Part shown: in pieces, positions 28,297 to 40,444 of the stretch | Position numbering within the stretch: the stretch's first letter is position 1 | Layout: each line of letters begins with the position of its first letter | NCBI GenBank assembly: GCA_049513975.1 | Contig: JBEKVM010000029.1 | Coordinates: 12,783-76,782, forward strand | DNA length: 64,000 bases | Source: Verrucomicrobiota bacterium | GTDB lineage: Bacteria > Verrucomicrobiota > Verrucomicrobiia > Limisphaerales > Palsa-1400 | Direction of reading: 5' to 3' | The notes under the pieces: model-generated | The model's input: the letters and a program-made list of their open reading frames with translations, nothing else | Told to the model about the DNA's origin: nothing | The model's database searches: none | Position numbers and translations under genes: made by a program

Positions 28297-28373
28297 CCGG
28301 AGCGTAGCTCAGCCTGGTAGAGCACTTGGTTTGGGACCAAGACGTCGCAGGTTCAAATCCTGTCGCTCCGACC
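28297..28373 (+). tRNA. tRNA-Pro(TGG), canonical, CCA encoded
   Basis: CGGAGCG-TA-GCTC-AGCCTGGTA-GAGC-A-CTTGG-TTTGGGA-CCAAG-ACGTC-GCAGG-TTCAAAT-CCTGT-CGCTCCG-A-CCA. D-loop GG and T-loop TTCAAAT are present. Confidence 0.95.
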
Positions 28374-29637: not shown

Positions 29638-29861
29638 ATTTTGCTCCTCTGGGGGAAATTCCCCCTTTGCTCGCGCATCCGCTCAAGAAACGCCTCAATA
29701 TCGCTTTGCATCAATCCCACCGCGCGGCCCACCCTCACCAAATGCGGCAGTTCGCCCCGGTCCGTCATCCGCCGCACCGACCGCACGCAAACACCCAGGC
29801 TGGCCGCAACCTCTCGCAATCTCATAACCCGGTCCAGTTTCTTTTCGCCTTCACCATTCAT
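29634..29861 (-). CDS. AlpA/excisionase-like helix-turn-helix protein
   Basis: MRLREVAASLGVCVRSVRRMTDRGELPHLVRVGRAV.. Overlaps the integrase start by 4 nt. Confidence 0.7.
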   Translation of the reverse strand: MNGEGEKKLDRVMRLREVAASLGVCVRSVRRMTDRGELPHLVRVGRAVGLMQSDIEAFLERMREQRGNFPQRSKI

Positions 29862-29877
29862 TTTTATCCTTTCATAC

Positions 29878-30393
29878 TCAAACCACCAGCCGACTTTCCA
29901 GATACGGCTTGGCCTTCTGCCGGGTTTCCGTGTTGATACAAAACCACTTCGCCCGAAGAATTCTGTCCGCCGACACGACATCCTCTTTCAGGAACAGCTT
30001 GGCACCCAGCCGGCCAAGCGGATTCCCAATGGCCTTGTCAATGTGACTCTCGTAAGCGACCCGGCTCTTGAACAAAAAGGCGAATGCCTCGGATTTCACC
30101 CAATTGGCAATGATCCGCGCGGAAGGCTCGATTGTGTCAAAAAACGCATTCCAACTCTTTTTGGGGTCGTTGAGCGCCTTCGTGATCGTGACGGCGCTTA
30201 ATTTGACGCCCTGTTCTTCCAGCAGGAACCGGCTGATTGCCCGCGCACTCATTCTTTGCGACGCCTCGAAAAGAAACGGGAACATTTCGATCACCAGCCC
30301 GCGATGGGCGGTGAACTCTGTTGATTTTGCGTGCCCGACCAATTTCAGGCCGATGTCAGTCGCACTCGTTGTTTTTTGATGGTCTTGTGCCAT
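29878..30393 (-). CDS. Hypothetical protein (island cargo)
   Basis: 171-aa ORF on the same strand as the island genes. No motif recognised. Confidence 0.45.
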   Translation of the reverse strand: MAQDHQKTTSATDIGLKLVGHAKSTEFTAHRGLVIEMFPFLFEASQRMSARAISRFLLEEQGVKLSAVTITKALNDPKKSWNAFFDTIEPSARIIANWVKSEAFAFLFKSRVAYESHIDKAIGNPLGRLGAKLFLKEDVVSADRILRAKWFCINTETRQKAKPYLESRLVV

Positions 30394-30580
30394 ATTGTTG
30401 GTGATCTTAACACCCTTATCAACCTTGTCAACCCCCTATTTTCAACAATTTTAAACACCGAGACCATGCCGCCACCCCCACCTCTGATAAAGGCATTTTC
30501 CCCGCGGCTCGTTCCCGTGTCGTCATCCGGCTTGCTAAAGGCAAGAAGGCCAAGCCGGATGCCAACACGCGAACGCTCCG

Positions 30581-30773
30581 CCCCGACAAGTGCCTGGTGG
30601 TGAAGTCGCTGGATTCCAGCTTGCGCCCTGTTTCCCCTTCGCAACATGGAATCCACCGCCATCACCACCAGGGAGTTGAAGGCAGCGCGGGCAGGCCGCT
30701 TTTGCGGGTCTCAATGATGTTTTCCGCTGTCGCGGAGGGGGAGAAATCAGACTGTGCCGTCACTCCATCTCCG
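30581..30773. repeat. R-module copy 2
   Basis: See 22394..22600. Confidence 0.7.
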
Positions 30774-30922
30774 AGGCCGCGAGGGACGATAACGCACGGA
30801 TGACGCCTAACACGGAAAGCTGAACCACCGCCGACTCGCGACGTGAGCCGCGTTAGCGAAACGGCAAGCGCCACCGGCGGTTCGCTCCGGCGACTTCGTT
30901 AGCCCACGGTGTCTTCACATTT

Positions 30923-31165
30923 CTAATGTCTCTTCCGCTCCCGGTCATAGTGCAGCTTCGTCGCAAAAGCCGCGACCACCAGAATCGGAACAGTGGCGAG
31001 AAGCCAAGGCAGTTCACGAGCGCCGAAGAGGGCCAGTGCGGCGAAGACGCCGATGACAAAATAGACACTCTCCCGACGATAACAGCACTGGCGATAGCTG
31101 CGACCGGAAGAACAAGCACAAGGCTCAATGAACTTCTTCGCCAGCCATGCCTTCGGACTTTTCAT
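30923..31165 (-). CDS. Small membrane protein with SEC-C-type Cys motif
   Basis: CACSSGRSYRQCC followed by two hydrophobic helices. Confidence 0.45.
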   Translation of the reverse strand: MKSPKAWLAKKFIEPCACSSGRSYRQCCYRRESVYFVIGVFAALALFGARELPWLLATVPILVVAAFATKLHYDRERKRH

Positions 31166-31287
31166 TGCAGTGTGCTTGGTGGCCTAAAGAAAAAAGCTGA
31201 ACCACCGCCGACCCGTGACGTGAACCGCGACAGCAGCACGAAAAGCGCCAACGGCGGTTGGCTCCGGCGACTTGTTTGGCGATGGGG

Positions 31288-31563
31288 TCATGACCTGAGT
31301 TCCGTGATGGCATAATAACCATACCTACCCAGTAAAATAATGGGGAAAACGCATAGGAGGCCTGCAACAACTCGCTGCCACATCACACCGTGGCGTAGCA
31401 CCGGAGCAACAAATAGCAATGCGAGACCGGCAAGTCCAAGATTCTCAAAATACCAAGAATCCGGATTTCTGTAGTCCTTAATGATGTAGCTAATGCGGCT
31501 CCAAAGAAACCACTGAACCGCGATGGCCCCAACGAACGCGAAAAGTGGATAGTTCTTTCTCAT
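31288..31563 (-). CDS. Small polytopic membrane protein
   Basis: 91 aa with three hydrophobic segments, AT-richer sequence. Confidence 0.45.
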   Translation of the reverse strand: MRKNYPLFAFVGAIAVQWFLWSRISYIIKDYRNPDSWYFENLGLAGLALLFVAPVLRHGVMWQRVVAGLLCVFPIILLGRYGYYAITELRS

Positions 31564-31566
31564 CCC

Positions 31567-31722
31567 AGAAGGATGTCGCCGCCGGCACCCAAAATCAAGC
31601 CTTTAATGCCGTTAATGCAGTTGTTCGTTTCAAATCAGCAGAGGGAACAACCGCTTTGCACCGGCCTGCCGAAGCCGGGGCACCGAACCGAGCAACGCCG
31701 GAATCCGCTCCATCCAAAATTC
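31567..31722. repeat. S-module copy 2 (Rep 3' end plus conserved leader)
   Basis: See 24001..24147. Confidence 0.7.
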
Positions 31723-32937
31723 AACGCCAGCAAATAGTTTGACAGTGAAATCCCGCGAGAACAACTGCCCCTTCCGCATCTTCGCCCGTTTCTCCTTCGG
31801 ACAGGTCGCCATGCGGTAACGGCGCATCACCCGGCGCAGTTTCAACGCCTGCCCGTTCGTCAACTCCAGTACATCCCGCCGACCGAGAGGCAGATTCTTG
31901 CGGCCAACAATGCCCCAAAACCGACCCGGCTTCGCGGACCAAATGCACTCGCCAATCTTCGCAACATACTTCTTCGCCGCGTACGCGAAGGCCCCACGCT
32001 TCGAGCCAAGCGTCTGAACCGACGTGCCCGCACGATAATGCTTCACCTCGCCGCTCCCAACCACGTCAAACCAATTCCGCGCAAACCAATTCGCAATCGA
32101 ATCTCCGTTCACCACAGACGGACACTTGCCATGCGGCTCCACACGAATGGCACACCATTCCTCGCGCTCATCCACCAAGGCACTGTGACCCTCCACCCAT
32201 TCGCCCCCGGCCAAAACATCCTCATCCCACACAACCACAAGTCCAATCATTCGGCGGCGCAAACGAACTTGCTCGGTCCGCATGGTCTTCCACTCGAAAC
32301 CCCACGGCACGCCCCAGACAAACGCATGGATATGCGGCGCGATCTTCCCCTTGTTCACCCCGCTTTTGCGAGGTTGAAATTCTAGCTTCCACATCAAACA
32401 GCCGTCAGGAAACCGACGGGCGAACCGCTTTGACATCGTATCAATGTGCCGCTTCACCTGTTCGCCATCCCAGGCGTAACGGTCAAACTCATCAGGATAC
32501 GTCAGACCCGCCATGAACGGCACCGCGCCATCTTCCACCTTCGCCAAGTAATCCAACATCCGCCGCCGTGACGCCGCCGTGAACTCCTCAATTTCGCCAC
32601 GCTCACCACCGCGACGCTCAGGCCCGCGCAAATGTCCCTCAGAACGGCACCGCAATTCCATGAAGCTCGCGTTGCGATAAACTTGCAACATGCCCTTGCT
32701 CGTATTTCGCGGTGAATTATGCACCTTAGACAAGCCAGGGCGAACGCATGTGGTCGGCGGCCAGGCGGCCGGTGAACCGTCCACCTGGCCACCGACCCGC
32801 ATTGCGGCGACAACGGCGGCAGCCTGCTCGAATGTAGTGACCGGGGAGGAATCGAAGGAATCATTGCGCACAATCCACCCCCAAACGCGACGCCCCAAGG
32901 AAAGTTGGCCCTCCCGCATCGTCCGTTGACACCACAT
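31630..32937 (-). CDS. Putative HUH-type rolling-circle replication initiator
   Basis: HUH-like APHIHAFVWG and Tyr motif AFAYAAKKYVAK. The start codon is not resolved. Confidence 0.55.
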   Translation of the reverse strand: MWCQRTMREGQLSLGRRVWGWIVRNDSFDSSPVTTFEQAAAVVAAMRVGGQVDGSPAAWPPTTCVRPGLSKVHNSPRNTSKGMLQVYRNASFMELRCRSEGHLRGPERRGGERGEIEEFTAASRRRMLDYLAKVEDGAVPFMAGLTYPDEFDRYAWDGEQVKRHIDTMSKRFARRFPDGCLMWKLEFQPRKSGVNKGKIAPHIHAFVWGVPWGFEWKTMRTEQVRLRRRMIGLVVVWDEDVLAGGEWVEGHSALVDEREEWCAIRVEPHGKCPSVVNGDSIANWFARNWFDVVGSGEVKHYRAGTSVQTLGSKRGAFAYAAKKYVAKIGECIWSAKPGRFWGIVGRKNLPLGRRDVLELTNGQALKLRRVMRRYRMATCPKEKRAKMRKGQLFSRDFTVKLFAGVEFWMERIPALLGSVPRLRQAGAKRLFPLLI

Positions 32938-33193
32938 TCCGCCGCAGAACCGGCGAGCAAAATGGCTCGCTGTCCGGTTCTGCTCGTTCTATTTCGCCGC
33001 CGTGCCGCCCTGGTATCACTGGCCCCCCTTGTCTGTGGCCGTGCTGGCAATGGCGAGGATTGCCACTTTGAGCGCCGCGTTGAGCCGGGGCCATGCCTTG
33101 ACTACTTGGGACAGGTCATGTAAGGAAGTGACCGGAGTTTGTGAGTCTCCTTGTGAGTCTCGCGTTGTAACTCCTTGATTATCAGCAGGCGGA

Positions 33194-33221
33194 GGCAGGT
33201 TCAAATCCTGTCGCTCCGACC
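33194..33221 (+). repeat. attR: duplicated tRNA-Pro 3' end
   Basis: Identical 28 bp to 28346..28373. Confidence 0.9.
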
Positions 33222-33346
33222 ACTTCATGACCCAGGGCTGGGGTTGGATTACCGGGTCGCCCGATCTGCAAATTCGCTCTTGCAGTTGGGTCGCTTTGAA
33301 TTGACAGCTTGGGAGAGCGAGCTTTTTGGCCCGCCCTCCCGGTGTT

Positions 33347-33931
33347 TTATTCCTTCACGAACAGCCTCCATTCGGGAATGCGGTGGGCGTTGCGGATGAG
33401 GGCGGAGGCCGGCAGCTCCTTGGGCGCGCGCGGCACGCGGAGCAATTTCAAGCCGGCTTCGTGGGGAAGGCGGTTGCCTTTGCGGGCGTTGACGTCTTTG
33501 CCGGCCCAAACCAGATTTTCCCAGGCGTTCTTGCCGCCGCGCGAACGGGGCAGGACGTGATCGAGGCTGCCATCTTCAGGGCGCAGGACGCGGCCGGTGT
33601 ATTGGCAGCGGTTGCCGTCGCGCTCGCGGATGGCGCGGGCGCAGAGCTTCGGGCGCTTCTTGGGCACCTTGGCGTAATTGACCGCGACGATGACCGTGGG
33701 CACACGGACCGGACCGCGGACGGTCCGCACGGCGTTGTCCTGCGGACGAATGGGCAGCGTGATCCACTCGTCCCAGGTCACGGGACGGATGTGGTTTTGG
33801 CCTTCGATGTCCAGAGCGGTCGCCACGTTGGTGGCCATCATGCAGAAGGCCTCCTGCGGCGTGCGAACGTTGACGGCCTGCCAGTTGCGGTTGAGCACCA
33901 GCACGAGCGATTTGTTCAGTATGTCATTCAT
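33347..33931 (-). CDS. HNH endonuclease
   Basis: Start MNDILNKS (ATG at 33931). HNH core CQYTG....LDHVLPRSRGGKNAWENLVWAGKDVNARKGN. Same strand as, and immediately downstream of, the tRNA-like array. Confidence 0.8.
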   Translation of the reverse strand: MNDILNKSLVLVLNRNWQAVNVRTPQEAFCMMATNVATALDIEGQNHIRPVTWDEWITLPIRPQDNAVRTVRGPVRVPTVIVAVNYAKVPKKRPKLCARAIRERDGNRCQYTGRVLRPEDGSLDHVLPRSRGGKNAWENLVWAGKDVNARKGNRLPHEAGLKLLRVPRAPKELPASALIRNAHRIPEWRLFVKE

Positions 33932-34072: not shown

Positions 34073-34147
34073 TGGCTGCCCCGCCTGGTTTTGCTCCAGG
34101 TCCTCCGGTTTCAGAGACCGGCGCACTCCTGAGTATGCAACGAGGCA
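34073..34147 (-). tRNA. tRNA-like Gln(CTG), CCA encoded
   Basis: TGCCTCG-TT-GCAT-ACTCAGGA-GTGC-G-CCGGT-CTCTGAA-ACCGG-AGGA-CCTGG-AGCAAAA-CCAGG-CGGGGCA-G-CCA. U1:A72 and G73. Confidence 0.7.
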
Positions 34148-34148
34148 A

Positions 34149-34222
34149 TGGTCGCCCGGGAAGGTTCTGCCCCTTCGATTTCTGGGTGTAGGCCGGACGT
34201 GATTCTATTTCACCACCGGGCG
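34149..34222 (-). tRNA. tRNA-like Val(TAC), CCA encoded
   Basis: CGCCCGG-TG-GTGA-AATAGAA-TCAC-G-TCCGG-CCTACAC-CCAGA-AATC-GAAGG-GGCAGAA-CCTTC-CCGGGCG-A-CCA. C33. Confidence 0.65.
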
Positions 34223-34240
34223 ATTTTGAGTTAAGAATTT

Positions 34241-34304
34241 GGAATGCGGAGTGCGGAATGAAGACGCCCCACTCTGCATTCTGCATTCTTCATTCTGCAT
34301 TTCC
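34241..34304. repeat. Heptad-repeat hairpin b
   Basis: GGAATGCGGAGTGCGGAATGAAGA...CTCTGCATTCTGCATTCTTCATTCTGCATTTCC. Confidence 0.75.
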
Positions 34305-34307
34305 GAG

Positions 34308-34381
34308 TGGCTGCCGGGGCTGGAGTTGCACCAACATATGCGCCTTCAAAGGGCGCTGTCCTACGATTAGACGACCCGGCA
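34308..34381 (-). tRNA. tRNA-like Gln(TTG), CCA encoded
   Basis: TGCCGGG-TC-GTCT-AATCGTA-GGAC-A-GCGCC-CTTTGAA-GGCGC-ATAT-GTTGG-TGCAACT-CCAGC-CCCGGCA-G-CCA. U1:A72 and G73. Confidence 0.75.
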
Positions 34382-34390
34382 AATGGGAAA

Positions 34391-34469
34391 TGATGAAGGA
34401 TGGAGGATGAAGGAAGAATTGAGGGCCGCTGCGATGTTTTGACTTCATCCTTCTTCCTTCATCCTTCTT
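34391..34469. repeat. Heptad-repeat hairpin c
   Basis: GATGAAGGATGGAGGATGAAGGAAGAA...TTCATCCTTCTTCCTTCATCCTTCTT. Confidence 0.75.
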
Positions 34470-34479
34470 ACTGGAAGAG

Positions 34480-34553
34480 TGGTGGCCCGCCAGGGTAACG
34501 CTCCCTGTTCAACGGCTTAAAAGACCGTTGCATCACTTTAATGCTTGCAGGCC
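34480..34553 (-). tRNA. tRNA-like Lys(TTT), CCA encoded
   Basis: GGCCTGC-AA-GCAT-TAAAGTG-ATGC-A-ACGGT-CTTTTAA-GCCGT-TGAA-CAGGG-AGCGTTA-CCCTG-GCGGGCC-A-CCA. A8. Confidence 0.75.
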
Positions 34554-34557
34554 ATGA

Positions 34558-34651
34558 CGATTGCGGATTGGCGATTGCGGATTGCGGATTTGAAGACAAA
34601 GGTCCGGCTGTCCGGGCGCGCTCTCAATTCGCAATTCGCAATCCGCAATTG
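34558..34651. repeat. Heptad-repeat hairpin d
   Basis: GATTGCGGATTGGCGATTGCGGATTGCGGATT...AATTCGCAATTCGCAATCCGCAATT. Confidence 0.75.
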
Positions 34652-34656
34652 AAAGA

Positions 34657-34728
34657 TGGAGCCTCCAGCCGGTGCTGCCCCGGCACGAATTCTTTACAAA
34701 AGAAATCCACAGGCTGCTGCATGGAGGC
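34657..34728 (-). tRNA. tRNA-like Thr(TGT), CCA encoded, reduced D-arm
   Basis: GCCTCCA-TG-CAGCAGCCTGTGGA-TTTCT-TTTGTAA-AGAAT-TCGT-GCCGG-GGCAGCA-CCGGC-TGGAGGC-T-CCA. Confidence 0.55.
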
Positions 34729-34766
34729 GCATTGGCTCGACGGGCCGTAGCTCGAAGAGCGAAGGC

Positions 34767-34838
34767 TGGTCGCAGTCCCCAGTGCTGCCCTGGGCAGAGC
34801 GGGCGTATGAAACCTGCCTGAGCGCTGGCTCGACTGCG
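34767..34838 (-). tRNA. tRNA-like with CAT anticodon (Met/Ile2 type), weak anticodon stem
   Basis: CGCAGTC-GA-GCCAGCGCTCAGG-CAGGT-TTCATAC-GCCCG-CTCTG-CCCAG-GGCAGCA-CTGGG-GACTGCG-A-CCA. Confidence 0.45.
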
Positions 34839-34883
34839 GTGGGCGAATGGCCGTCTTGGGGAAGGGCTTCACACGACCGAAAT

Positions 34884-34993
34884 TGGCGTCCCTGACCGGC
34901 TTTGCTCCCGCCTACGTTCAGATGCTACGGCGGGCAAGCCGGTGATCTCCTGCATGAGAGGCAGGCGTGTTGGCTGGGCTACACTACAGGGAT
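34884..34993 (-). tRNA. tRNA-like Glu(CTC) with about 39-nt hairpin insertion in the T-loop
   Basis: ATCCCTG-TA-GTGT-AGCCCAGCCA-ACAC-G-CCTGC-CTCTCAT-GCAGG-AGATC-ACCGG-[39 nt, CCCGCC..GGCGGG hairpin]-CCGGT-CAGGGAC-G-CCA. Confidence 0.4.
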
Positions 34994-34998
34994 GGAAT

Positions 34999-35090
34999 TG
35001 GTGCGCGCGTCCGGTAACGCTCCGGAACCCGGCACTGATCTAGTGCGATGCGGGGTATAAAGCCGCCGGCTCTCTTTGAGCTACGCGCGC
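34999..35090 (-). tRNA. Class II (long variable arm) tRNA-like, anticodon ambiguous (TAT best fit, TTA alternative)
   Basis: GCGCGCG-TA-GCTC-AAAGA-GAGC-CG-GCGGC-TTTATAC-CCCGC-ATC-GCACT-AGATC-AGTGC-CGGGT-TCCGG-AGCGTTA-CCGGA-CGCGCGC-A-CCA. Confidence 0.5.
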
Positions 35091-35095
35091 GCAAA

Positions 35096-35183
35096 TGGCG
35101 GAATGCCGTGGAGTTGCGCCACATGCCCGAAGGCACGCACTCGTTAGCACCGAGGCCCGGCTCGCTCGTCCGGTTGACATTCC
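35096..35183 (-). tRNA. tRNA-like Ser(GCT), class II, CCA encoded
   Basis: GGAATGT-CAA-CCGG-ACGAGCGAG-CCGG-GC-CTCG-GTGCTAA-CGAG-TGC-GTGCC-TTCG-GGCA-TGTGG-CGCAACT-CCACG-GCATTCC-G-CCA. Confidence 0.65.
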
Positions 35184-35186
35184 AAA

Positions 35187-35261
35187 TGGTGCCCGTGGCA
35201 GGACTTGCGCCTGCACTGTCGAAGGTTTGAGCTTCGCGCCTCTGCCTTGGGCTACACGGGC
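35187..35261 (-). tRNA. tRNA-like Leu(CAA) with short (class I) variable loop
   Basis: GCCCGTG-TA-GCCC-AAGGCAG-AGGC-G-CGAAG-CTCAAAC-CTTCG-ACAGT-GCAGG-CGCAAGT-CCTGC-CACGGGC-A-CCA. Confidence 0.75.
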
Positions 35262-35264
35262 TGT

Positions 35265-35339
35265 TGGTGCCCACGGCCGGATTTGCACCGACACTGGGCG
35301 CGTTTTAAGTGCGCTGTCTCTGCGTTGGACTACATGGGC
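35265..35339 (-). tRNA. tRNA-like Leu(TAA) with short variable loop
   Basis: GCCCATG-TA-GTCC-AACGCAG-AGAC-A-GCGCA-CTTAAAA-CGCGC-CCAGT-GTCGG-TGCAAAT-CCGGC-CGTGGGC-A-CCA. Confidence 0.7.
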
Positions 35340-35343
35340 AAGT

Positions 35344-35419
35344 TGGTACCGCGTGAAGGAATTGCACCCTCAACCTTCCCGTTCTGAGCGGGACGCCTCT
35401 GCTGTTGGGCTAACGCGGC
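35344..35419 (-). tRNA. tRNA-like Leu(CAG) with short variable loop
   Basis: GCCGCGT-TA-GCCC-AACAGCAG-AGGC-G-TCCCG-CTCAGAA-CGGGA-AGGTT-GAGGG-TGCAATT-CCTTC-ACGCGGT-A-CCA. Confidence 0.75.
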
Positions 35420-35425
35420 CTGGAT

Positions 35426-35501
35426 TGGCACTCCCGGAAGGACTCTCACCCTCATCTTCGACGTTCGAAGCGTCGCGCTCTGGTGATTGAGCTACGGGAG
35501 C
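35426..35501 (-). tRNA. tRNA-like Arg(TCG), CCA encoded
   Basis: GCTCCCG-TA-GCTC-AATCACCA-GAGC-G-CGACG-CTTCGAA-CGTCG-AAGAT-GAGGG-TGAGAGT-CCTTC-CGGGAGT-G-CCA. Confidence 0.75.
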
Positions 35502-35503
35502 GG

Positions 35504-35610
35504 GAAGAAGTGCAAAATGCGGAATGCAGAATGCAGAATGAAATGCCGCACACCATGCCTTGCCTTCGGGATGGTCTCACTCTGCATTCTTCACTCTCAA
35601 TTCTCCATTC
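35504..35610. repeat. Heptad-repeat hairpin e
   Basis: GAAGTGCAAAATGCGGAATGCAGAATGCAGAATGAAATG...CACTCTGCATTCTTCACTCTCAATTCTCCATTC. Confidence 0.75.
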
Positions 35611-35614
35611 GAAA

Positions 35615-35689
35615 TGGTGGGTTGCCGCGGAATTGCACCGCGTTCTCGCCGGTTAAGAGCCGGGACTTCACTGTAAAAGTTTGCAACCC
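35615..35689 (-). tRNA. tRNA-like Lys(CTT), CCA encoded
   Basis: GGGTTGC-AA-ACTT-TTACAGTG-AAGT-CCCGG-CTCTTAA-CCGGC-GAGAA-CGCGG-TGCAATT-CCGCG-GCAACCC-A-CCA. A8. Confidence 0.7.
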
Positions 35690-35691
35690 GG

Positions 35692-35768
35692 ACGCGACGC
35701 GATGGCGGAGTTGAACCGCCGCAGCCAGGTCTGTGAGGCCCTTGCCGGCACCGGTGTTCGCGTCGCGT
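35692..35768 (-). other. Hairpin element: 11-bp closing stem enclosing a T-arm with a canonical-type loop, not a cloverleaf
   Basis: Plus-strand arms ACGCGACGCGA (35692..35702) and TCGCGTCGCGT (35758..35768) pair. The minus sense contains GGCGG-TTCAACT-CCGCC. No anticodon arm could be found. Confidence 0.4.
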
Positions 35769-35819
35769 AAGTAATAATCGTCGTTGTTGATTGTCTCCAA
35801 AGGACGTAACAATCCAGGC

Positions 35820-36581
35820 ATGACGATTCCGGCTGAATTGCTGCAACGCCTGGCCGCCGCCAAAAGCGTGACGGTGCTGACGGGCGCCGGCGTGTCGGCG
35901 GAAAGCGGGGTCCCCACATTTCGCGATGCCCAGACCGGGCTGTGGGCGAAATTCAGTCCCGAAGAACTGGCCACGCCGCGCGCCTTCCGGCGAAATCCCC
36001 GCCTGGTTTGGGAATGGTATGAATGGCGGCGTGAGCTTGTCGCCGCCGCCAAGCCAAACCCGGCGCACCTCGCCCTGGCAGAAATGGAGAAGGTCTTTCC
36101 GCGGTTCCATCTCATCACGCAAAACGTGGACGGTCTGCATCAACGCGCTGGAAGCCGGCGGGTCATCGAACTGCACGGCAATATCATGCGCACGAAATGT
36201 TTTGACGAGGGCACGCTGGTTTCGAGTTGGAAAGACACCGGCGATGTCCCGCCGAAATGCCCGGCCTGTGGCGGCTGGTTGCGCCCCGACGTGGTTTGGT
36301 TTGAAGAGGCAATGCCGGAAGCGGAGATGGCACAGGCCGCGACGGCGAGCACGCATTGCGACGTCTTTTTTTCCATCGGCACGTCCACTGTTGTTTATCC
36401 CGCGGCCGCCCTGCCAGCGGAAGCGTTGCGCAGCGGGGCGACCGTGGCGGAGATCAATCCGCAACCCACACCATTCACGCCGCAGGCGCATTTTGCTCTG
36501 GCTGGGGCGGCCGGGGTTGTGTTGCCCGAATTGATGGAGGGCCTCAACGCCGTGCGTGGCGGGCTGCGCGCGTCGTCGTAG
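35820..36581 (+). CDS. cobB: Sir2-family NAD-dependent protein deacylase (CobB-like)
   Basis: GAGVSAESGVPTFRD, QNVDGLHQRAG, Zn ribbon C..C...CPACGG, FFSIGTS. Start MTIPAELL at 35820. Opposite strand to the array. Confidence 0.85.
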   Translation: MTIPAELLQRLAAAKSVTVLTGAGVSAESGVPTFRDAQTGLWAKFSPEELATPRAFRRNPRLVWEWYEWRRELVAAAKPNPAHLALAEMEKVFPRFHLITQNVDGLHQRAGSRRVIELHGNIMRTKCFDEGTLVSSWKDTGDVPPKCPACGGWLRPDVVWFEEAMPEAEMAQAATASTHCDVFFSIGTSTVVYPAAALPAEALRSGATVAEINPQPTPFTPQAHFALAGAAGVVLPELMEGLNAVRGGLRASS

Positions 36582-36636
36582 GCCCACCTCCGCTCTACGA
36601 GCTACGGCGGCCAACCTTCGCCGCGGCGAAGGTTGG
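36582..36636 (-). repeat. Partial E-type repeat with a perfect 12-bp hairpin that pairs the CCA of the Cys tRNA-like
   Basis: CCAACCTTCGCC-GC-GGCGAAGGTTGG (36611..36636) followed by CCGCCGTAGCTCGTAGAGCGG, homologous to the E repeats. Abuts the sirtuin stop codon. Confidence 0.55.
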
Positions 36637-36708
36637 AATCCCGTGCTGGAATTGCACCAGCCTTTGCGGTTCTGCAGACCGCCGCCTGAGCTGCTCGGCC
36701 AACGGGAC
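36634..36708 (-). tRNA. tRNA-like Cys(GCA), CCA encoded
   Basis: GTCCCGT-TG-GCCG-AGCAGCTCA-GGC-G-GCGGT-CTGCAGA-ACCGC-AAAG-GCTGG-TGCAATT-CCAGC-ACGGGAT-T-CCA. U73. Confidence 0.75.
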
Positions 36709-36720
36709 GCACTTCAAAAT

Positions 36721-36795
36721 TGGGGTGACCAACCGGAGTTGCACCGGCACAAACGCCGTCACGGGGCGTGATGCTGCTGTTACATCATGATCACC
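36721..36795 (-). tRNA. tRNA-like His(GTG) with encoded G-1 and C73
   Basis: (G-1)GTGATCA-TG-ATGT-AACAGCA-GCAT-C-ACGCC-CCGTGAC-GGCGT-TTGT-GCCGG-TGCAACT-CCGGT-TGGTCAC-C-CCA. C33. Confidence 0.75.
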
Positions 36796-36798
36796 ATG

Positions 36799-36892
36799 GC
36801 AAAAGTGCAAAGTTGTGAACGCAAAGTGCAGAGTGGAAGGCACCATGTTCGCGTCCTTCCATTCTTCACTCTGCATTCTGCCTTCTTCACTC
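36799..36892. repeat. Heptad-repeat hairpin f
   Basis: AAAGTGCAAAGTTGTGAACGCAAAGTGCAGAGTGGAAGG...CCTTCCATTCTTCACTCTGCATTCTGCCTTCTTCAC. Confidence 0.7.
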
Positions 36893-36895
36893 AAA

Positions 36896-36971
36896 TGGAG
36901 CCCCTGGCCGGACTCGCACCGGCGGATACGAGTTTACGAAACTCGCCCTGTTGCTGCTGAGGCACGGGGGC
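36896..36971 (-). tRNA. tRNA-like Thr(CGT), CCA encoded
   Basis: GCCCCCG-TG-CCTC-AGCAGCAAC-AGGG-CGAGT-TTCGTAA-ACTCG-TATCC-GCCGG-TGCGAGT-CCGGC-CAGGGGC-T-CCA. U73, as in the other Thr unit. Confidence 0.65.
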
Positions 36972-36973
36972 GG

Positions 36974-37099
36974 GAAAGAAAGGATGAAGGATGAAGGCTG
37001 AAGGCTAAAGTAAAGGCAAAAGCGAGCGATCAACAAGAGATTCTAATGCTCGCTGAGCAATCTTTTCCTTCATCCTTCATACTTCTTCCTTCTTACTTC
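36974..37099. repeat. Heptad-repeat hairpin g
   Basis: AAGGATGAAGGATGAAGGCTGAAGGCTAAAG...CCTTCATCCTTCATACTTCTTCCTTCTTACTTC. Confidence 0.7.
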
Positions 37100-37104
37100 A
37101 AAAC

Positions 37105-37150
37105 TGGCGCTCTCACATGGATTTGCACCATGAGGTTCTGGCTTCGTTAC
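37105..37150 (-). pseudogene. 3' fragment of a tRNA-like unit (CCA, acceptor strand, T-arm CATGG-TGCAAAT-CCATG), truncated at the adjacent CDS
   Basis: Plus strand TGG-C-GCTCTCA-CATGG-ATTTGCA-CCATG. No matching 5' acceptor strand. The region beyond 37147 is the 3' end of the ORF. Confidence 0.45.
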
Positions 37151-37719
37151 GGCCAAACACTCGCCCGGTTTGTCGCCAGGTTGTCGAGAATCCAGGTTTT
37201 GTTGCGAAGCGGAAAAAGAGTTAATCTCGACATGTTGTCAACATTACTGGCGGCCTCCCGGACCTCGGCCATATTCGGCAGGCGGACGTAATTGCTGCCT
37301 TCGATCATCACCTGGGGTGCTCGGTGCTCCATGTAGTCCCGTACGTAGCTGCCCAGGGAGCCGCTGTTCGGCGGCCAGTCCGAGGACCGTGGAAGATTCG
37401 TGGAACCACTCCGAAGATCAACGACAAATACCAACATGGACGTGTCGTCGTCGTCCACACACAAGAAGCGTTTGCCGTCCGCAAAAGCATAGAGACAAAG
37501 AGGACAATCAAAAAAGTCGCCCCATATACTGAACAACTTGGTTTCGCCGGCATAGACGGGATATTCCTTGTCCCCCCACCACAGAGGTGCTGGGAGCTTG
37601 ACAGCCGCCACGACTTTCCCGTTTGCGCGAAGCTTCACACTGCGCGTTCCCAATAGCTGCCATAGCGCCAAGCCAATGGCGGCGACTATGAGAATAAGAA
37701 TGACGATTCGTCGTTTCAC
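37147..37719 (-). CDS. Hypothetical membrane-anchored protein
   Basis: MKRRIVILILIVAAIGLALW anchor. Lower GC. Sits inside the array on the array strand. Confidence 0.5.
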   Translation of the reverse strand: MKRRIVILILIVAAIGLALWQLLGTRSVKLRANGKVVAAVKLPAPLWWGDKEYPVYAGETKLFSIWGDFFDCPLCLYAFADGKRFLCVDDDDTSMLVFVVDLRSGSTNLPRSSDWPPNSGSLGSYVRDYMEHRAPQVMIEGSNYVRLPNMAEVREAASNVDNMSRLTLFPLRNKTWILDNLATNRASVWP

Positions 37720-37810
37720 GATGTGCAGCGCCTGGAATCTATAAGCCTGGAACGCCCCTCGTAGCCATCATAAATTCGGGCTGACTCAGTTTCTTGCATT
37801 TAGAGCAAAT

Positions 37811-37888
37811 TGGCATCCGTGATCGGACTCGCACCGATTAGGCCCGGCTTGAAAGACCGGCTGCTCGATCTGCTTTGCATTCACGGAC
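37811..37888 (-). tRNA. tRNA-like Glu(TTC), CCA encoded, enlarged D-loop
   Basis: GTCCGTG-AA-TGC-AAAGCAGATCGA-GCA-G-CCGGT-CTTTCAA-GCCGG-GCCTA-ATCGG-TGCGAGT-CCGAT-CACGGAT-G-CCA. Confidence 0.65.
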
Positions 37889-37909
37889 TAATTGCGCAGG
37901 ACTGAGAAT

Positions 37910-37984
37910 TGGCCCCCGAGGTTGGTATCGCGCCAACGTCTCCTCCTCTTCAGGGAGGCGCTAATCTTCCTCAGCTACCCGGGG
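37910..37984 (-). tRNA. tRNA-like Phe(GAA), CCA encoded
   Basis: CCCCGGG-TA-GCTG-AGGAAGATT-AGC-G-CCTCC-CTGAAGA-GGAGG-AGAC-GTTGG-CGCGATA-CCAAC-CTCGGGG-G-CCA. Confidence 0.75.
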
Positions 37985-37990
37985 AATGAA

Positions 37991-38062
37991 TGGCCCGGTA
38001 GAGGGAGACTCTGTCGAGCTGTGACTAAATCGAGTCAGGGTTCGACGGAGTCTCCCTACCGG
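37991..38062 (-). ncRNA. CCA-terminated rod-like hairpin (acceptor-like stem stacked on a 7-bp stem, no cloverleaf)
   Basis: CCGGTAG-G-GAGACTC-C-GTCGA-ACCC-TGACT-CGATTT-AGTCA-CAGC-TCGAC-A-GAGTCTC-CCT-CTACCGG-G-CCA. Confidence 0.4.
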
Positions 38063-38070
38063 GAAAAGTA

Positions 38071-38141
38071 TCGTCCCGGCAGGTAATGCTCCTGCGTCTT
38101 CCGGTTATCAGCCGGGCGCTCTGCTCTTGAGCTACAGGACG
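38071..38141 (-). tRNA. tRNA-like Ile(GAT), the only member without an encoded CCA
   Basis: CGTCCTG-TA-GCTC-AAGAGCA-GAGC-G-CCCGG-CTGATAA-CCGGA-AGAC-GCAGG-AGCATTA-CCTGC-CGGGACG-A, followed by TAC. Confidence 0.7.
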
Positions 38142-38287
38142 GTGGTTAGTTGCGGTTTCAGGCCGAAGCGTTTGGCGGGGCGGAACACGATGTTCAGCTT
38201 GCCGATTGGCCGGATGCGCATGGCCCGATTTAGTTGGCAGCGCTTGCGAAAGAGCAACTGGCTTTGACAGCGGACAATGGGTTTCAT
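38132..38287 (-). CDS. Possible 51-aa very basic small ORF (below the ORF-track cutoff)
   Basis: ATG at 38287 with AAAGG 8 nt upstream. MKPIVRCQSQLLFRKRCQLNRAMRIRPIGKLNIVFRPAKRFGLKPQLTTVL*. The stop codon lies inside the 5' end of the Ile tRNA-like. Confidence 0.25.
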   Translation of the reverse strand: MKPIVRCQSQLLFRKRCQLNRAMRIRPIGKLNIVFRPAKRFGLKPQLTTVL

Positions 38288-38316
38288 GGGATTACCTTTC
38301 GTTAAGGGTTTGGAAT

Positions 38317-38418
38317 TGGCTTGCCGGGCCGAAGCCGCTTCCGGGAGGAGACATGGCCCGTCTTGGCTTCGCTTCGACGCGGCAGCCTGCGCCGCCCGCT
38401 GATGGAGGCGGCGAAAGC
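38317..38418 (-). repeat. E repeat copy 1 (CCA-terminated structured repeat plus hairpin)
   Basis: Family shared with 38919.., 39193.. and 39468... The plus strand starts AATTGGC(C/T)TGCC and ends GGCGAA(A/G)GCTGG. Confidence 0.6.
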
Positions 38419-38509
38419 TGGCGGAAGGCGTCGGTAACGCTCCGACCTCGGGTTTGAGCCGATCCTGTTTTCGGGACAGGCGCAGCCAGCTTATATCTGC
38501 CTGCCTTCC
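38419..38509 (-). tRNA. tRNA-like Ser(CGA), class II, CCA encoded
   Basis: GGAAGGC-AG-GCAG-ATATAAGCTGG-CTGC-G-CCTGT-CCCGAAA-ACAGG-A-TCGG-CTCAAAC-CCGA-G-GTCGG-AGCGTTA-CCGAC-GCCTTCC-G-CCA. C33. Confidence 0.7.
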
Positions 38510-38513
38510 TTAA

Positions 38514-38588
38514 GTGGAGAGTTGGGAGTAAAGAGTGTAGAATCGAAAATGCCTGTATTCTGCACTCTGCACTTTGCACTCTGCATTC
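38514..38588. repeat. Heptad-repeat hairpin h
   Basis: GTGGAGAGTTGGGAGTAAAGAGTGTAGAATCG...TATTCTGCACTCTGCACTTTGCACTCTGCATTC. Confidence 0.7.
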
Positions 38589-38592
38589 AAAA

Positions 38593-38666
38593 TGGCTGCC
38601 AGACTTGGACTCGCACCAAGACAAGCGGCTTAACAGGCCGCCGTGCTACTTTGACACCACCTGGCA
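38593..38666 (-). tRNA. tRNA-like Asn(GTT), CCA encoded
   Basis: TGCCAGG-TG-GTGT-CAAAGTAG-CAC-G-GCGGC-CTGTTAA-GCCGC-TTGT-CTTGG-TGCGAGT-CCAAG-TCTGGCA-G-CCA. Confidence 0.75.
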
Positions 38667-38668
38667 AT

Positions 38669-38745
38669 TGGCGCTGCCGGCAGGATTTGCACCCGCATAA
38701 GTTCGTTTAGAAGACGAACGCCTCATCTCGTTCGGCCACGGCAGC
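38669..38745 (-). tRNA. tRNA-like Arg(TCT), CCA encoded
   Basis: GCTGCCG-TG-GCCG-AACGAGATGA-GGC-G-TTCGT-CTTCTAA-ACGAA-CTTAT-GCGGG-TGCAAAT-CCTGC-CGGCAGC-G-CCA. Confidence 0.75.
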
Positions 38746-38754
38746 TTTTGGAAA

Positions 38755-38830
38755 TGGTCGGAATGGCAGGGTTTTCACCTGCGGCCTCCCGGTCCCAAGC
38801 CGGGTGCTCTAAAGACTGAGCTACATTCCG
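38755..38830 (-). tRNA. tRNA-like Pro(TGG), CCA encoded
   Basis: CGGAATG-TA-GCTC-AGTCTTTA-GAGC-A-CCCGG-CTTGGGA-CCGGG-AGGCC-GCAGG-TGAAAAC-CCTGC-CATTCCG-A-CCA. Confidence 0.75.
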
Positions 38831-38837
38831 TGAAGAA

Positions 38838-38913
38838 TGGCGGACCCGAAGGGAGTTGCACCCTCAACCCTCCCGCAGACAACGGGGCGCTCTGCTGATT
38901 GAGCTACGAGTCC
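38838..38913 (-). tRNA. tRNA-like Asp(GTC), CCA encoded
   Basis: GGACTCG-TA-GCTC-AATCAGCA-GAGC-G-CCCCG-TTGTCTG-CGGGA-GGGTT-GAGGG-TGCAACT-CCCTT-CGGGTCC-G-CCA. Confidence 0.7.
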
Positions 38914-38918
38914 GAAAT

Positions 38919-39019
38919 TGGCCTGCCCGCCGAAGCTGCGCAGGACGAGGCGTAAAGCCCGCCTTCGCTAAAGCTACGGCGCGGCAGCCTTCGCCCGCCG
39001 TTGCACAGCGGGCGAAGGC
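38919..39019 (-). repeat. E repeat copy 2
   Basis: Minus sense: GCCTTCGCCCGC-TGTGCAACG-GCGGGCGAAGGC hairpin, then CTGCCGCGCCGTAGCTTTAGCGAAGGCGGGCTTTACGCCTCGTCCTGCGCAGCTTCGGCGGGCAG-G-CCA. Confidence 0.65.
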
Positions 39020-39107
39020 TGGTGGGAAGTGCTGGTAACGCTCCAGTCGTCGCTTCCGACATGTTTTGAGACGTCCGGGTTACGGCCGGATTGCCGGATC
39101 ACTTCCC
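39020..39107 (-). tRNA. tRNA-like Tyr(GTA)?, 88 nt, D-arm reduced, long extra arm
   Basis: GGGAAGT-GA-TCCGGCAA-TCCGG-CCGTAAC-CCGGA-CGTCTCAAAACATGTCGGAAGCGACG-ACTGG-AGCGTTA-CCAGC-ACTTCCC-A-CCA. C33. Alternative folds are possible. Confidence 0.45.
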
Positions 39108-39113
39108 TGAAAT

Positions 39114-39186
39114 TGGTAGCGGGGGTGGGAGTTGCGCCCACGGAGGCAGAGCTTATGAGGCTCGCCTGAATCTCATTCTCCCCGCA
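39114..39186 (-). tRNA. tRNA-like Met-type (CAT), 1:72 mismatch, tiny D-loop
   Basis: TGCGGGG-A-GAAT-GAG-ATTC-AGGC-GAGC-CTCATAA-GCTC-TGCCTCC-GTGGG-CGCAACT-CCCAC-CCCCGCT-A-CCA. Confidence 0.55.
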
Positions 39187-39192
39187 GTGAAA

Positions 39193-39293
39193 TGGCCTGC
39201 CAGCCGTAGCTGTGCAGGACGAGGCGTAACGTCGGCCTTCGCTAAAGCTACGGCGCGGCAGCCTTCGCCCGCCGTTGCACAGCGGGCGAAGGC
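39193..39293 (-). repeat. E repeat copy 3
   Basis: Near-identical to copy 2 over the hairpin and the CGGCGCGGCAGCCTTCGCCCGCCGTTGCACAGCGGGCGAAGGCTGG block. Confidence 0.65.
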
Positions 39294-39368
39294 TGGTGGA
39301 GTCGGTGGGTAACGCTCCCACATCGGCTTGCTTGCAGGGCAAGTGCATTGCTTGTCTGCCACGACCCC
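39294..39368 (-). tRNA. tRNA-like Ala(TGC) with G3:U70
   Basis: GGGGTCG-TG-GCA-GACAAGCAA-TGC-A-CTTGC-CCTGCAA-GCAAG-CCGAT-GTGGG-AGCGTTA-CCCAC-CGACTCC-A-CCA. Position 3 G pairs with position 70 T. C33. Confidence 0.75.
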
Positions 39369-39383
39369 ATAAAGTCAAAAGAA

Positions 39384-39457
39384 TGGCAAGCCGCCCTGGT
39401 GCTGCCCCAGGCAAGCTGAGTTTTGGAGACTCTGCTGCACAGGCTGGTGCGCGACTT
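39384..39457 (-). tRNA. tRNA-like Trp(CCA), CCA encoded
   Basis: AAGTCGC-GCAC-CAGCCT-GTGC-AGCA-GAGT-CTCCAAA-ACTC-AGCTTG-CCTGG-GGCAGCA-CCAGG-GCGGCTT-G-CCA. Confidence 0.6.
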
Positions 39458-39467
39458 GTTTTGGAAT

Positions 39468-39567
39468 TGGCCTGCCAGCCGCAGCCGCGCAGGAGGAAAC
39501 GAAAAGCCCGCCTTCGCTGAAGCTGCGGCGGGCAGCCTTCACCCGTTGACATGCAGCGGGGGAAGGC
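39468..39567 (-). repeat. E repeat copy 4 (most diverged)
   Basis: The plus strand starts AATTGGCCTGCCAGCCGCAGCCGCGCAGG and ends GCAGCGGGGGAAGGCTGG. Confidence 0.55.
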
Positions 39568-39641
39568 TGGTGCGGTTGCCGGGAGTTGCGCCCGGACTTC
39601 CTCCGTGGCGGGGAGGCATTCTGCTGTTAAATCACAACCGC
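39568..39641 (-). tRNA. tRNA-like Gly(GCC), CCA encoded
   Basis: GCGGTTG-TG-ATTT-AACAGCAG-AAT-G-CCTCC-CCGCCAC-GGAGG-AAGT-CCGGG-CGCAACT-CCCGG-CAACCGC-A-CCA. C33. Confidence 0.75.
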
Positions 39642-39989: not shown

Positions 39990-40026
39990 AAAATAAAAAA
40001 CCCTGCTTGCATGTCGGCAAGCAGGG
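39990..40026 (-). terminator. Rho-independent terminator (minus strand)
   Basis: CCCTGCTTGC-atgtcg-GCAAGCAGGG, with the A-run AAAATAAAAAA on the plus side, which is a U-tract on the minus strand. Confidence 0.6.
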
Positions 40027-40444
40027 TTGAGGAAGTTCTATTTCGTTCGTTACCTGCTTGCCATGAGTCTATCCAACTTGACCTGTTGTTCCGGGGCTGC
40101 GGTGGATAGACCAAGGCTAAACACACTACCCGGGTTATACCGGCTATGACGTGTCCCAATGGTCATTGGGGCCGCCGTCATCGGCCAACTCGCGGCTGAT
40201 ATGTTTAAGCAAGTTTTCATTGAACTTATAACACAGGTATCACGGAGTGTTCATTGCGTCAACTACTATTTAAAAATATTTTGAGATTTTTTTATTGCGC
40301 CCGGATTCATATATTCGGATAGGTTGATGTGAAATTCCTGACGCCCCGCGCAGTTTTTGCGCTGACGCCGTGAGATTGACGCGGGCCTGCCGCTTCTGTT
40401 TCTCCGGGATGATGAAGGAGCCGGCGGCAGGGTTTGGCCTCGCG

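Follow-up and report, generated by a model that had tools for sequence, protein, structure and literature searches.

Leucyl-tRNA synthetase (LeuRS) of Escherichia coli can dispense with the anticodon and with the long variable arm that tRNA-Leu carries, and variants without both arms are still charged; the leucine identity elements in this organism include A73, A15:U48, G18G19 and A20a in the D loop, and C2:G71 acts as an antideterminant against seryl-tRNA synthetase (SerRS) (PMC9976931). In Streptomyces coelicolor, a tRNA-Leu(CAA) of type I, whose variable loop (ACAGC) comprises 5 nt, is leucylated by the sole LeuRS of its host, and the tolerance of type I substrates varies between LeuRS enzymes (PMC6614811). 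Here we describe three consecutive genes for tRNAs with leucine anticodons and short variable loops, which are part of a long tRNA array in a 64,000-nt stretch of DNA (contig JBEKVM010000029.1; hereafter the window) from a Verrucomicrobiota bacterium.

A locus counts as a long tRNA array (L-array) if it has 20 or more tRNA genes in one orientation, packed at two or more per kb (PMC4758250 and PMC8421152). According to the latter account, L-arrays spread horizontally, are associated with homing endonucleases and occur in Verrucomicrobia. The same account reports for the trn operon of Anabaena (Nostoc) PCC 7120 that 23 of the 26 tRNAs are aminoacylated in vivo and that the operon is induced by translational stress; since four tRNAs of this operon are short leucine tRNAs, at least one of these is charged. 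The accessible text of this account makes no comment on their short arm. Linkage of HNH genes to tRNA arrays is described in PMC8421152, PMC6582537 and PMC12803027, and a mycobacterial tRNA cluster with an HNH gene contains a tRNA-Leu(UAG) with a short variable loop (PMC6582537; see also PMC5966550 and PMC12803027). Explicit statements on short-arm tRNA-Leu in phages or arrays amounted to scattered remarks in the literature searched.

Three class I leucine tRNA genes and their family

ARAGORN detected 17 tRNA genes in the window, 16 of them on the minus strand between 34308 and 39368, and these include three tandem genes with leucine anticodons, to which we refer as the Leu trio. They are listed with their scores for Rfam family RF00005 and for R1, a family covariance model explained below, and with the layout obtained from our own parse of the cloverleaf.

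35344..35419, minus strand: tRNA-Leu(CAG), class I, 76 nt; ARAGORN, Rfam 51.1 bits, parse, R1 74.3 bits; layout GCCGCGU UA GCCCAACAGCAGAGGC G UCCCG CUCAGAA CGGGA AGGUU GAGGG UGCAAUU CCUUC ACGCGGU A CCA
35265..35339, minus strand: tRNA-Leu(UAA), class I, 75 nt; ARAGORN, Rfam 43.6 bits, parse, R1 75.7 bits; layout GCCCAUG UA GUCCAACGCAGAGAC A GCGCA CUUAAAA CGCGC CCAGU GUCGG UGCAAAU CCGGC CGUGGGC A CCA
35187..35261, minus strand: tRNA-Leu(CAA), class I, 75 nt; ARAGORN, Rfam 48.7 bits, parse, R1 77.3 bits; layout GCCCGUG UA GCCCAAGGCAGAGGC G CGAAG CUCAAAC CUUCG ACAGU GCAGG CGCAAGU CCUGC CACGGGC A CCA

The ARAGORN lengths count the encoded CCA, and the Rfam scores, for which the gathering score is 29 bits, correspond to E-values of 2e-7 to 6e-6 in a search of the whole window. 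Our parse gave stems of 7/3-4/5/5 bp (7 bp in the acceptor stem and 5 bp each in the anticodon and T stems), variable loops of 5 nt each without an extra arm (AGGUU in the CAG, CCAGU in the UAA and ACAGU in the CAA unit), and discriminator A73 followed by an encoded CCA in all three cases. The Rfam alignment places the anticodon stem and loop at CGAAG/CUCAAAC/CUUCG in the CAA unit and at UCCCG/CUCAGAA/CGGGA in the CAG unit; the loops CUCAGAA (CAG), CUUAAAA (UAA) and CUCAAAC (CAA) all comprise 7 nt with U33 and a purine at position 37. As ARAGORN, Rfam and our own parse concur on the register, the anticodon loops are not mis-registered, a flaw that the initial annotation had named as fatal to its interpretation; the coordinates and lengths of 75-76 nt that it had given are those of ARAGORN, and the 5-nt variable loops and A73 are those of our parse.

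The core of each unit contains U8, A14, A15, U48 and a C13.A22 mismatch, and G55 is present in each T loop. Leu(CAG) further displays G1.U72, C2:G71, the A15:U48 pair, A18 G19 in the D loop and G55 C56 in the T loop, and Leu(UAA) has an A.C mismatch at 31:39 that is found in its relatives too. A canonical bacterial class II tRNA-Leu, which has a variable arm of at least 10 nt with a stem, is excluded for the trio by the 5-nt loops. The recoding class II type (allo-tRNA or nev-tRNA), in which a long-arm body carries a non-cognate anticodon, was rejected as well, since the trio has no long arm and its core fits the anticodon family.

Because the T loops of the array read UGCRANU instead of UUCRANU, public collections were scanned for two neighbouring tRNA 3' halves of this type. 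The genome collection contained at least 119 such loci, which among the matches listed came overwhelmingly from Verrucomicrobiota (Opitutaceae, Verrucomicrobiaceae, Akkermansiaceae, Pedosphaera, Chthoniobacter and a complete Nibricoccus chromosome), with further carriers, among the same matches, in Planctomycetota, Myxococcota and others; the viral collection contained 109 loci, and many of the contigs that carry them measure 60-260 kb. Against PLSDB plasmids, BLAST with the Leu trio as query gave no match at E <= 0.01. Running ARAGORN on 230 loci (228 related ones and two copies of the window region) produced 2634 tRNAs, and isotype was judged by nearest-neighbour analysis, a signature table and the family covariance model. 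In these loci, whose selection by T-loop pattern means that class proportions are not unbiased, 211 tRNAs with leucine anticodons belong to class I (205 of them outside the window) and 136 to class II. For serine the 228 related loci have 3 class I and 107 class II tRNAs, and for tyrosine 0 and 62. Set against 3:107 and 0:62, the ratio of 205:136 for leucine indicates that arm loss is recurrent and Leu-specific. The initial annotation had regarded the loss as specific to leucine on the strength of three long-armed units in the same array, and this specificity holds in the array itself, where both serine tRNAs are long-armed, and extends over the related loci. Two of its three controls are borne out, namely the serine tRNAs below. 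The third, a putative tRNA-Tyr, is not, since ARAGORN finds no standard tRNA-Tyr; what was meant is either a non-canonical tRNA-Tyr(GUA) at 39104-39020 or the 92-nt unit at 35090-34999, whose anticodon UAU is that of isoleucine.

35096..35183, minus strand: tRNA-Ser(GCU), class II, long variable arm, G73; fold and hand parse; directly downstream of the Leu trio
38419..38509, minus strand: tRNA-Ser(CGA), class II, 91 nt, 17-nt variable arm, G73; parse and ARAGORN at a relaxed threshold
34999..35090, minus strand: long-armed tRNA, 92 nt, anticodon UAU (Ile, codon AUA), A73; ARAGORN

Ser(GCU) has copies of 92-93% identity in two related loci (L005, L079).

When each trio member was compared with the 2634 tRNAs, all 40 nearest neighbours carried leucine anticodons for two of the units and 38 of 40 did so for the CAG unit, the remaining two being Gln(UUG). 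The closest neighbours are orthologues that differ by compensatory stem changes: near-identical ones of Leu(CAG) occur in L028, L048, L059, L115 and L039, and those of Leu(UAA) in L012, L059, L076, L112, L013 and L080. Assignment to another amino acid family, which the initial annotation had considered as a way in which its reading might fall, is thus not what was found, the nearest relatives being Leu-anticodon tRNAs both by sequence and by covariance model. The variable loop measures 5 nt in 190 of the 205 class I members, and in 197 unique sequences of this family 20 of the 21 stem positions are paired in 84-100% of cases, with up to six pair types each; partner shuffling of the same stems gave 59% pairing. 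In an alignment of 48 sequences that excluded those of the window, 99.6% of the cells were paired and double changes occurred in 19 of 20 pairs; none of 500 shuffles attained the observed value, and slid registers did not come close either. The covariance model R1 was built from this alignment. On the window, the next best tRNA after the trio reached 57.4 bits.

Within the family A73 is present in 97% of the sequences (100% in class II tRNA-Leu of the same loci), U8:A14 in 97% and A15:U48 in 96% (97% in class II). The C13.A22 mismatch, which leaves a D stem of 3 bp, is conserved, C2:G71 predominates, and G3:U70 is absent. Positions 13 and 22 are paired in 3% of class I and 2% of class II leucine tRNAs, in comparison to 61-94% in other class I groups except Cys, and among the anticodon groups compared class II tRNA-Leu alone shares with class I tRNA-Leu the combination of unpaired 13:22, A15:U48 and A73. 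By mean identity, class II tRNA-Leu is also the nearest other group (0.56), with class I tRNA-Arg comparable (0.54). This second closeness, together with an architecture that is atypical for bacterial tRNA-Leu, could be taken to favour the possible misacylation or recoding raised in the initial annotation, in which an enzyme different from LeuRS would charge these class I bodies and UUR and CUG would be read as another amino acid upon expression of the array. However, the Leu core signature just described is kept throughout the family, whereas determinants for other enzymes are missing: the family has neither G3:U70 nor G-1 or C73, SerRS and tyrosyl-tRNA synthetase (TyrRS) find no long arm, and the anticodons of the trio are wrong for every anticodon-reading synthetase (PMC9976931). 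The same arrays do contain other mismatches between architecture and anticodon, such as long-armed Ile(UAU), Lys(UUU), Asn and Thr tRNAs, but classical discriminators are found on the other isotypes, with U73 in 94 of 94 Cys tRNAs, G73 in Asn, Asp and Trp, mostly U73 in Thr and mostly C73 in His (53 of 88), which argues for standard synthetases and the standard code.

A separate observation concerns position 37, which is A and not G in most CUN-reading leucine tRNAs of the arrays (87 of the 103 sequences in class I and 57 of the 73 in class II), including Leu(CAG) at 35344-35419. Housekeeping bacterial tRNA-Leu(NAG) species have G37, which is modified to m1G37. With A37 in place of G37, the CUN-reading leucine tRNAs of the arrays would escape methylation by TrmD.

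Members of this family also occur in the Anabaena operon and in cultured phages. The four leucine genes of the Anabaena PCC 7120 operon, which is located on plasmid pCC7120delta, are 75-78 nt long, next to Ser(GCU) of 90 nt and Tyr of 87 nt; three of the four score 66.8-74.9 bits with R1, and the fourth, Leu(GAG), 26.9 bits. Like the window array, this operon is long, lies on one strand, encodes CCA and has an HNH gene at its end; unlike the window array, it is cyanobacterial, plasmid-borne and of lower G+C content, differs in gene order, has some variable loops of 6 nt and possesses canonical elbows (G18G19 and a UUC T loop). BLAST of the trio against cultured phages matched genes annotated as tRNA-Leu: Pseudomonas phage vB_PseuGesM_254 (OR575930) has two of 74-75 nt beside class II tRNA-Ser, and Microcystis phage Mwe-JY26 (PP438418) two of 77-78 nt beside class II tRNA-Leu and tRNA-Tyr. 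R1 assigned 59.6-78.1 bits to the annotated tRNA-Leu genes of these two phages, and Leu(UAG) of Mwe-JY26 shares GCCCGUG UA GUCC AA ... ACAGU with the window genes. The phage genes resemble the trio in their tandem position within tRNA clusters and differ in that they belong to phage genomes and have mostly canonical elbows.

Other systems are more distant. The S. coelicolor tRNA-Leu(CAA), compared with the trio by its description, has the loop ACAGC where Leu(CAA) has ACAGU, and U8:A14 is important for its recognition, whereas it is encoded by a stand-alone chromosomal gene of an actinomycete and A73 is not an identity element there (PMC6614811). The mycobacterial cluster, also compared by description, is horizontally acquired and has an embedded HNH gene as in our case, but occurs in Actinobacteria, their plasmids and mycobacteriophages. 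Animal mitochondrial tRNA-Leu is of class I too, and its leucylation is specified by A73 and A14 (PMC9976931); being organellar, A+U-rich, structurally loose and served by a dedicated LeuRS, it differs from the trio, and no sequence relationship is expected. The Leu trio is therefore an ordinary member of a known, widespread and little-discussed family and gives no sign of recoding.

Probable charging of the Leu trio by LeuRS and rival explanations

The preceding analyses establish the genes with their cloverleaves and the family with its covariation and its Leu-type core. We consider it probable that the trio represents genuine tRNA-Leu, belonging to a conserved class I lineage of phages and horizontally transferred L-arrays, and that it is charged by the host LeuRS. 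The array would be transcribed from the minus strand as one or a few precursors, and its tRNAs would be excised by RNase P and 3' nucleases, with CCA already encoded. Host LeuRS would then charge the trio, guided by A73 and by a tertiary core made up of U8:A14, A15:U48 and the elbow and reading neither the anticodon nor a long arm, and the charged tRNAs would decode with standard meaning, CAG reading CUG, UAA reading UUA and UUG, and CAA reading UUG. The array as a whole may constitute a mobile and supernumerary set of tRNAs, with an HNH endonuclease linked to it, and may serve as a back-up pool upon impairment of translation or of the housekeeping tRNAs, for instance under stress or under tRNA-targeting attack, by analogy with the Anabaena operon and phage tRNA sets.

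Several points weigh against this interpretation. Elbow contacts matter for E. coli LeuRS (PMC9976931), while the elbow of the trio is altered. Furthermore, E. coli LeuRS fails to charge the Streptomyces type I tRNA-Leu (PMC6614811), and compatibility of the trio with a Verrucomicrobial LeuRS is for this reason an assumption. Isotype labels in the locus comparison are based on the anticodon, in loci chosen by their T-loop pattern. In Leu(CAA), C54 disrupts the pair U54:A58, which all other unique family sequences have; U54 is present in 196 of the 197 unique family sequences, the window copy being counted, and the closest orthologue (L048, 3261-3335) carries U54. The array copy is worn, with truncated units, two inserted open reading frames (ORFs) and C33 in the Tyr gene, and no convincing array promoter was found, the scan for promoters and terminators of the array being no higher than the shuffled background. 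Expression and charging of the trio in this host are predictions made from sequence.

One elaboration of these ideas, which we regard as rather unlikely though conceivable, is that arrays of Verrucomicrobiota and phages carry a deliberately re-engineered parallel tRNA set, chargeable by the host and yet evading modifying enzymes, defence nucleases or toxins, so that the loss of the leucine arm would be adaptive and not a result of drift. Short Leu arms, the A18:G55 elbow described below as a substitute for G18:Psi55, A37 in CUN-reading tRNA-Leu, the long-armed Ile(UAU) and a tRNA-Tyr with an enclosing D stem would be elements of such a set.

The signs of wear just listed, C54 and C33 included, along with insertions of about 100 nt after five tRNAs and the result of the promoter scan, would also be expected if the genes were cryptic or decaying cargo, that is, intact relics of a transferred array, silent in the host and without a role in translation; L-arrays are reported to be nearly silent under standard conditions (PMC8421152). 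We nevertheless judge this reading to be unlikely. The trio has fully paired stems, cores of family consensus and R1 scores as high as those of any member, and orthologous blocks with compensatory changes are kept across many Verrucomicrobiota genomes, which points to continued selection on the lineage. In addition, the array of Anabaena can be induced and yields charged tRNAs (PMC8421152).

A non-translational role, in which the tRNAs would act not as adaptors but as regulators, or as sponges or decoys that occupy toxins or defence nucleases directed against tRNAs, appears improbable. Arrays have been discussed as putative anti-defence devices (PMC12803027), and the systematic elbow change (G55, A18) together with arm loss could alter recognition by tRNA-binding proteins; against this, near-full amino acid coverage, U33 with a purine at 37, encoded CCA and isotype-specific discriminators are what charging and decoding need, and the tRNAs of the Anabaena array are aminoacylated (PMC8421152). 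Misacylation or recoding by way of a synthetase other than LeuRS is the least plausible of the three rivals and is not supported, for although two Anabaena operon tRNAs (Phe and Ile) showed odd mobility in acid gels, mistranslation was not detected in Anabaena (PMC8421152), family members occur in cultured phages whose hosts use the standard code, and the conserved covarying family, its Leu-type core, the classical discriminators of other isotypes and the phage, Anabaena and Streptomyces precedents speak against it.

Leu-anticodon tRNAs of 74-78 nt in phage or array settings should be annotated as tRNA-Leu and not as pseudogenes or recoding agents. The textbook rule that bacterial tRNA-Leu is class II fails for mobile tRNA sets, about 60% of the leucine tRNAs in the loci examined being class I, and from cyanobacteria to Verrucomicrobiota the class I family represents a natural experiment on recognition by LeuRS in the absence of the extra arm.

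The tRNA array and its surroundings

The units of the array were gathered from ARAGORN at standard and relaxed settings, Rfam matches at the E-value threshold, folding of gaps and reading by eye.

34073..39641, minus strand: long tRNA array of the L-array type, about 30 units, nearly all ending in encoded CCA
Order of units, first part: Gly GCC, Trp CCA, Ala UGC, Met CAU, Tyr GUA (non-canonical), Asp, Pro UGG, Arg UCU, Asn
Order, continued: Ser CGA, Ile GAU, Phe, Glu UUC, truncated unit, Thr CGU, His, Cys, tRNA-like unit with 9-bp acceptor stem
Order, continued: Lys CUU, Arg UCG, Leu CAG, Leu UAA, Leu CAA, Ser GCU, long-armed Ile UAU
Order, end: Glu CUC-like, CAU, Thr UGU, Lys UUU, Gln UUG, Val UAC, Gln CUG
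33347..33931, minus strand: HNH endonuclease gene, 194 aa, PF13395 (HNH_4), immediately downstream of the array

Nearly all amino acids are covered by these units. With about 30 of them in 5.6 kb, all on the minus strand, with an HNH_4 gene directly downstream, and with a patchy spread of syntenic arrays over many Verrucomicrobiota metagenome-assembled genomes, other phyla and the 109 viral-contig loci, the array at 39641-34073 matches the horizontally transferred L-array type. Synteny was seen with L060, L059, L076, L005, L048, L079 and L082, and at least eight other loci share, in synteny, the block Cys(GCA)-Arg(UCG)-Leu(CAG)-Leu(UAA)-Leu(CAA). Homologues of the HNH gene are present in 66 of the 228 array loci; in the syntenic ones they are 70-84% identical and occupy the same place after the last Gln tRNAs. 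Two genes interrupt the array, a SIR2-family gene at 35820-36581 on the plus strand (Pfam E-value 1e-52) and a 190-aa ORF without family assignment at 37147-37719 on the minus strand. Both abut truncated units (a partial tRNA at about 37176-37104 and an H2 hairpin cut at about 36585), and neither has a counterpart in any of the 228 other loci.

On the HNH side of the array, a canonical tRNA-Pro(UGG) at 28298-28374 is followed by genes for an integrase, an HTH_17 protein and a Rep-like protein. A 31-nt direct repeat of the tRNA-Pro 3' end, 97% identical, at 33195-33225 bounds a 4.9-kb integrative element (28298-33225), which thus sits between tRNA-Pro and the block of HNH gene and array. Location of the array inside this element was considered and rejected, since the element closes at 33195-33225, before the array. 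Pro(UGG) is duplicated, the tRNA-Pro at 28298-28374 having a partner in the array unit at 38830-38755, and this is the sole comparison with a housekeeping gene that is possible within the 64 kb. Past the far end of the array a glycoside hydrolase gene lies at 40495. The IspH encoded in the window is 100% identical to a protein listed at NCBI for a Verrucomicrobiota metagenome-assembled genome. In contigs with an IspH 95% identical to that of the window, the flank that corresponds to tRNA-Pro and the array carries other genes.

Upstream of the array, a non-coding stretch of about 270 nt (39990-40260, minus strand) ends in a strong intrinsic terminator (40028-39999). It gave no match in Rfam and is a candidate small RNA. 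An ORF for a very basic polypeptide of 51 aa (38132-38287, minus strand) lies between Ser(CGA) and Ile(GAU). It is conserved, with 50-70% identity, in the corresponding position of 16 array loci from genomes, is absent from all the viral loci and probably represents a genuine gene for a small protein within the array.

The A18:G55 elbow and other unusual units

In the array (34073-39641) and in the related loci L003-L230, T loops read U-G55-C56-R-A (or A-G-C-G-U-U-A) instead of U-U-C, and D loops have A18 G19 in place of G18 G19. Among 2356 unique tRNAs, those with U55 C56 have GG in the D loop in 98% of cases; with G55 C56, AG is found in 97% and GG in 8%, and with G55 G56, AC predominates. 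Covariation of 18:55 and 19:56 is visible row by row in alignment A2. The array lineage has exchanged G18:U55 for A18:G55 and sometimes G19:C56 for C19:G56, a tertiary covariation that extends over hundreds of tRNAs from Verrucomicrobiota and phages. A Watson-Crick kissing elbow of the GC/GC type was dropped as an explanation, the data fitting better with G19:C56 kept and 18:55 changed from G:U to A:G. We found no description of an A18:G55 elbow in the literature searched. This elbow, and not the short leucine arm, is the less ordinary feature of the locus, may be the newer of the two observations, and provides a large natural covariation set for the tRNA elbow.

The Ile(UAU) unit at 34999-35090 formally combines a class II body with an anticodon that does not belong to class II. 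Its family contains a conserved hairpin in the variable arm, GCACUAGAUGAGUGC, and other loci contain 23 related copies. In these arrays, Lys(UUU), Asn(GUU) and Thr tRNAs with long arms are also met repeatedly.

The non-canonical tRNA-Tyr(GUA) at 39020-39104 (minus strand) was overlooked by ARAGORN and by Rfam and has relatives in L059 (5681-5775), L082, L102, L021, L005 and L060. In these sequences UCCRG, right after positions 8-9, covaries with CYGGA past the anticodon arm (CCGG/CCGG, CCAG/CUGG three times, and CCGA/UCGG), which indicates an anticodon arm enclosed by the 'D stem'. The window copy differs in having C33 where all six relatives have U33.

Another unit, at 35696-35770 (minus strand), is tRNA-like, with a 9-bp acceptor stem (GCGACGCGA/UCGCGUCGC) and a canonical UUCAACU T loop. 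It lacks CCA and a clear anticodon arm and gave a weak match to tRNA-Sec in Rfam (20 bits).

A repeat of about 100 nt occurs on the minus strand at 39468-39567, 39194-39293, 38920-39019 and 38316-38418, with a truncated copy from 36633 to about 36585. It consists of a perfect hairpin of 13-15 bp followed by a long imperfect hairpin that ends in GCCA, and it sits exactly after the CCA of a tRNA. The repeat is absent at the same positions in the syntenic locus L059, and similar copies were found in five other loci only (L022, L060, L061, L076 and L105); its appearance is that of a small insertion of mobile or tRNA-like nature.

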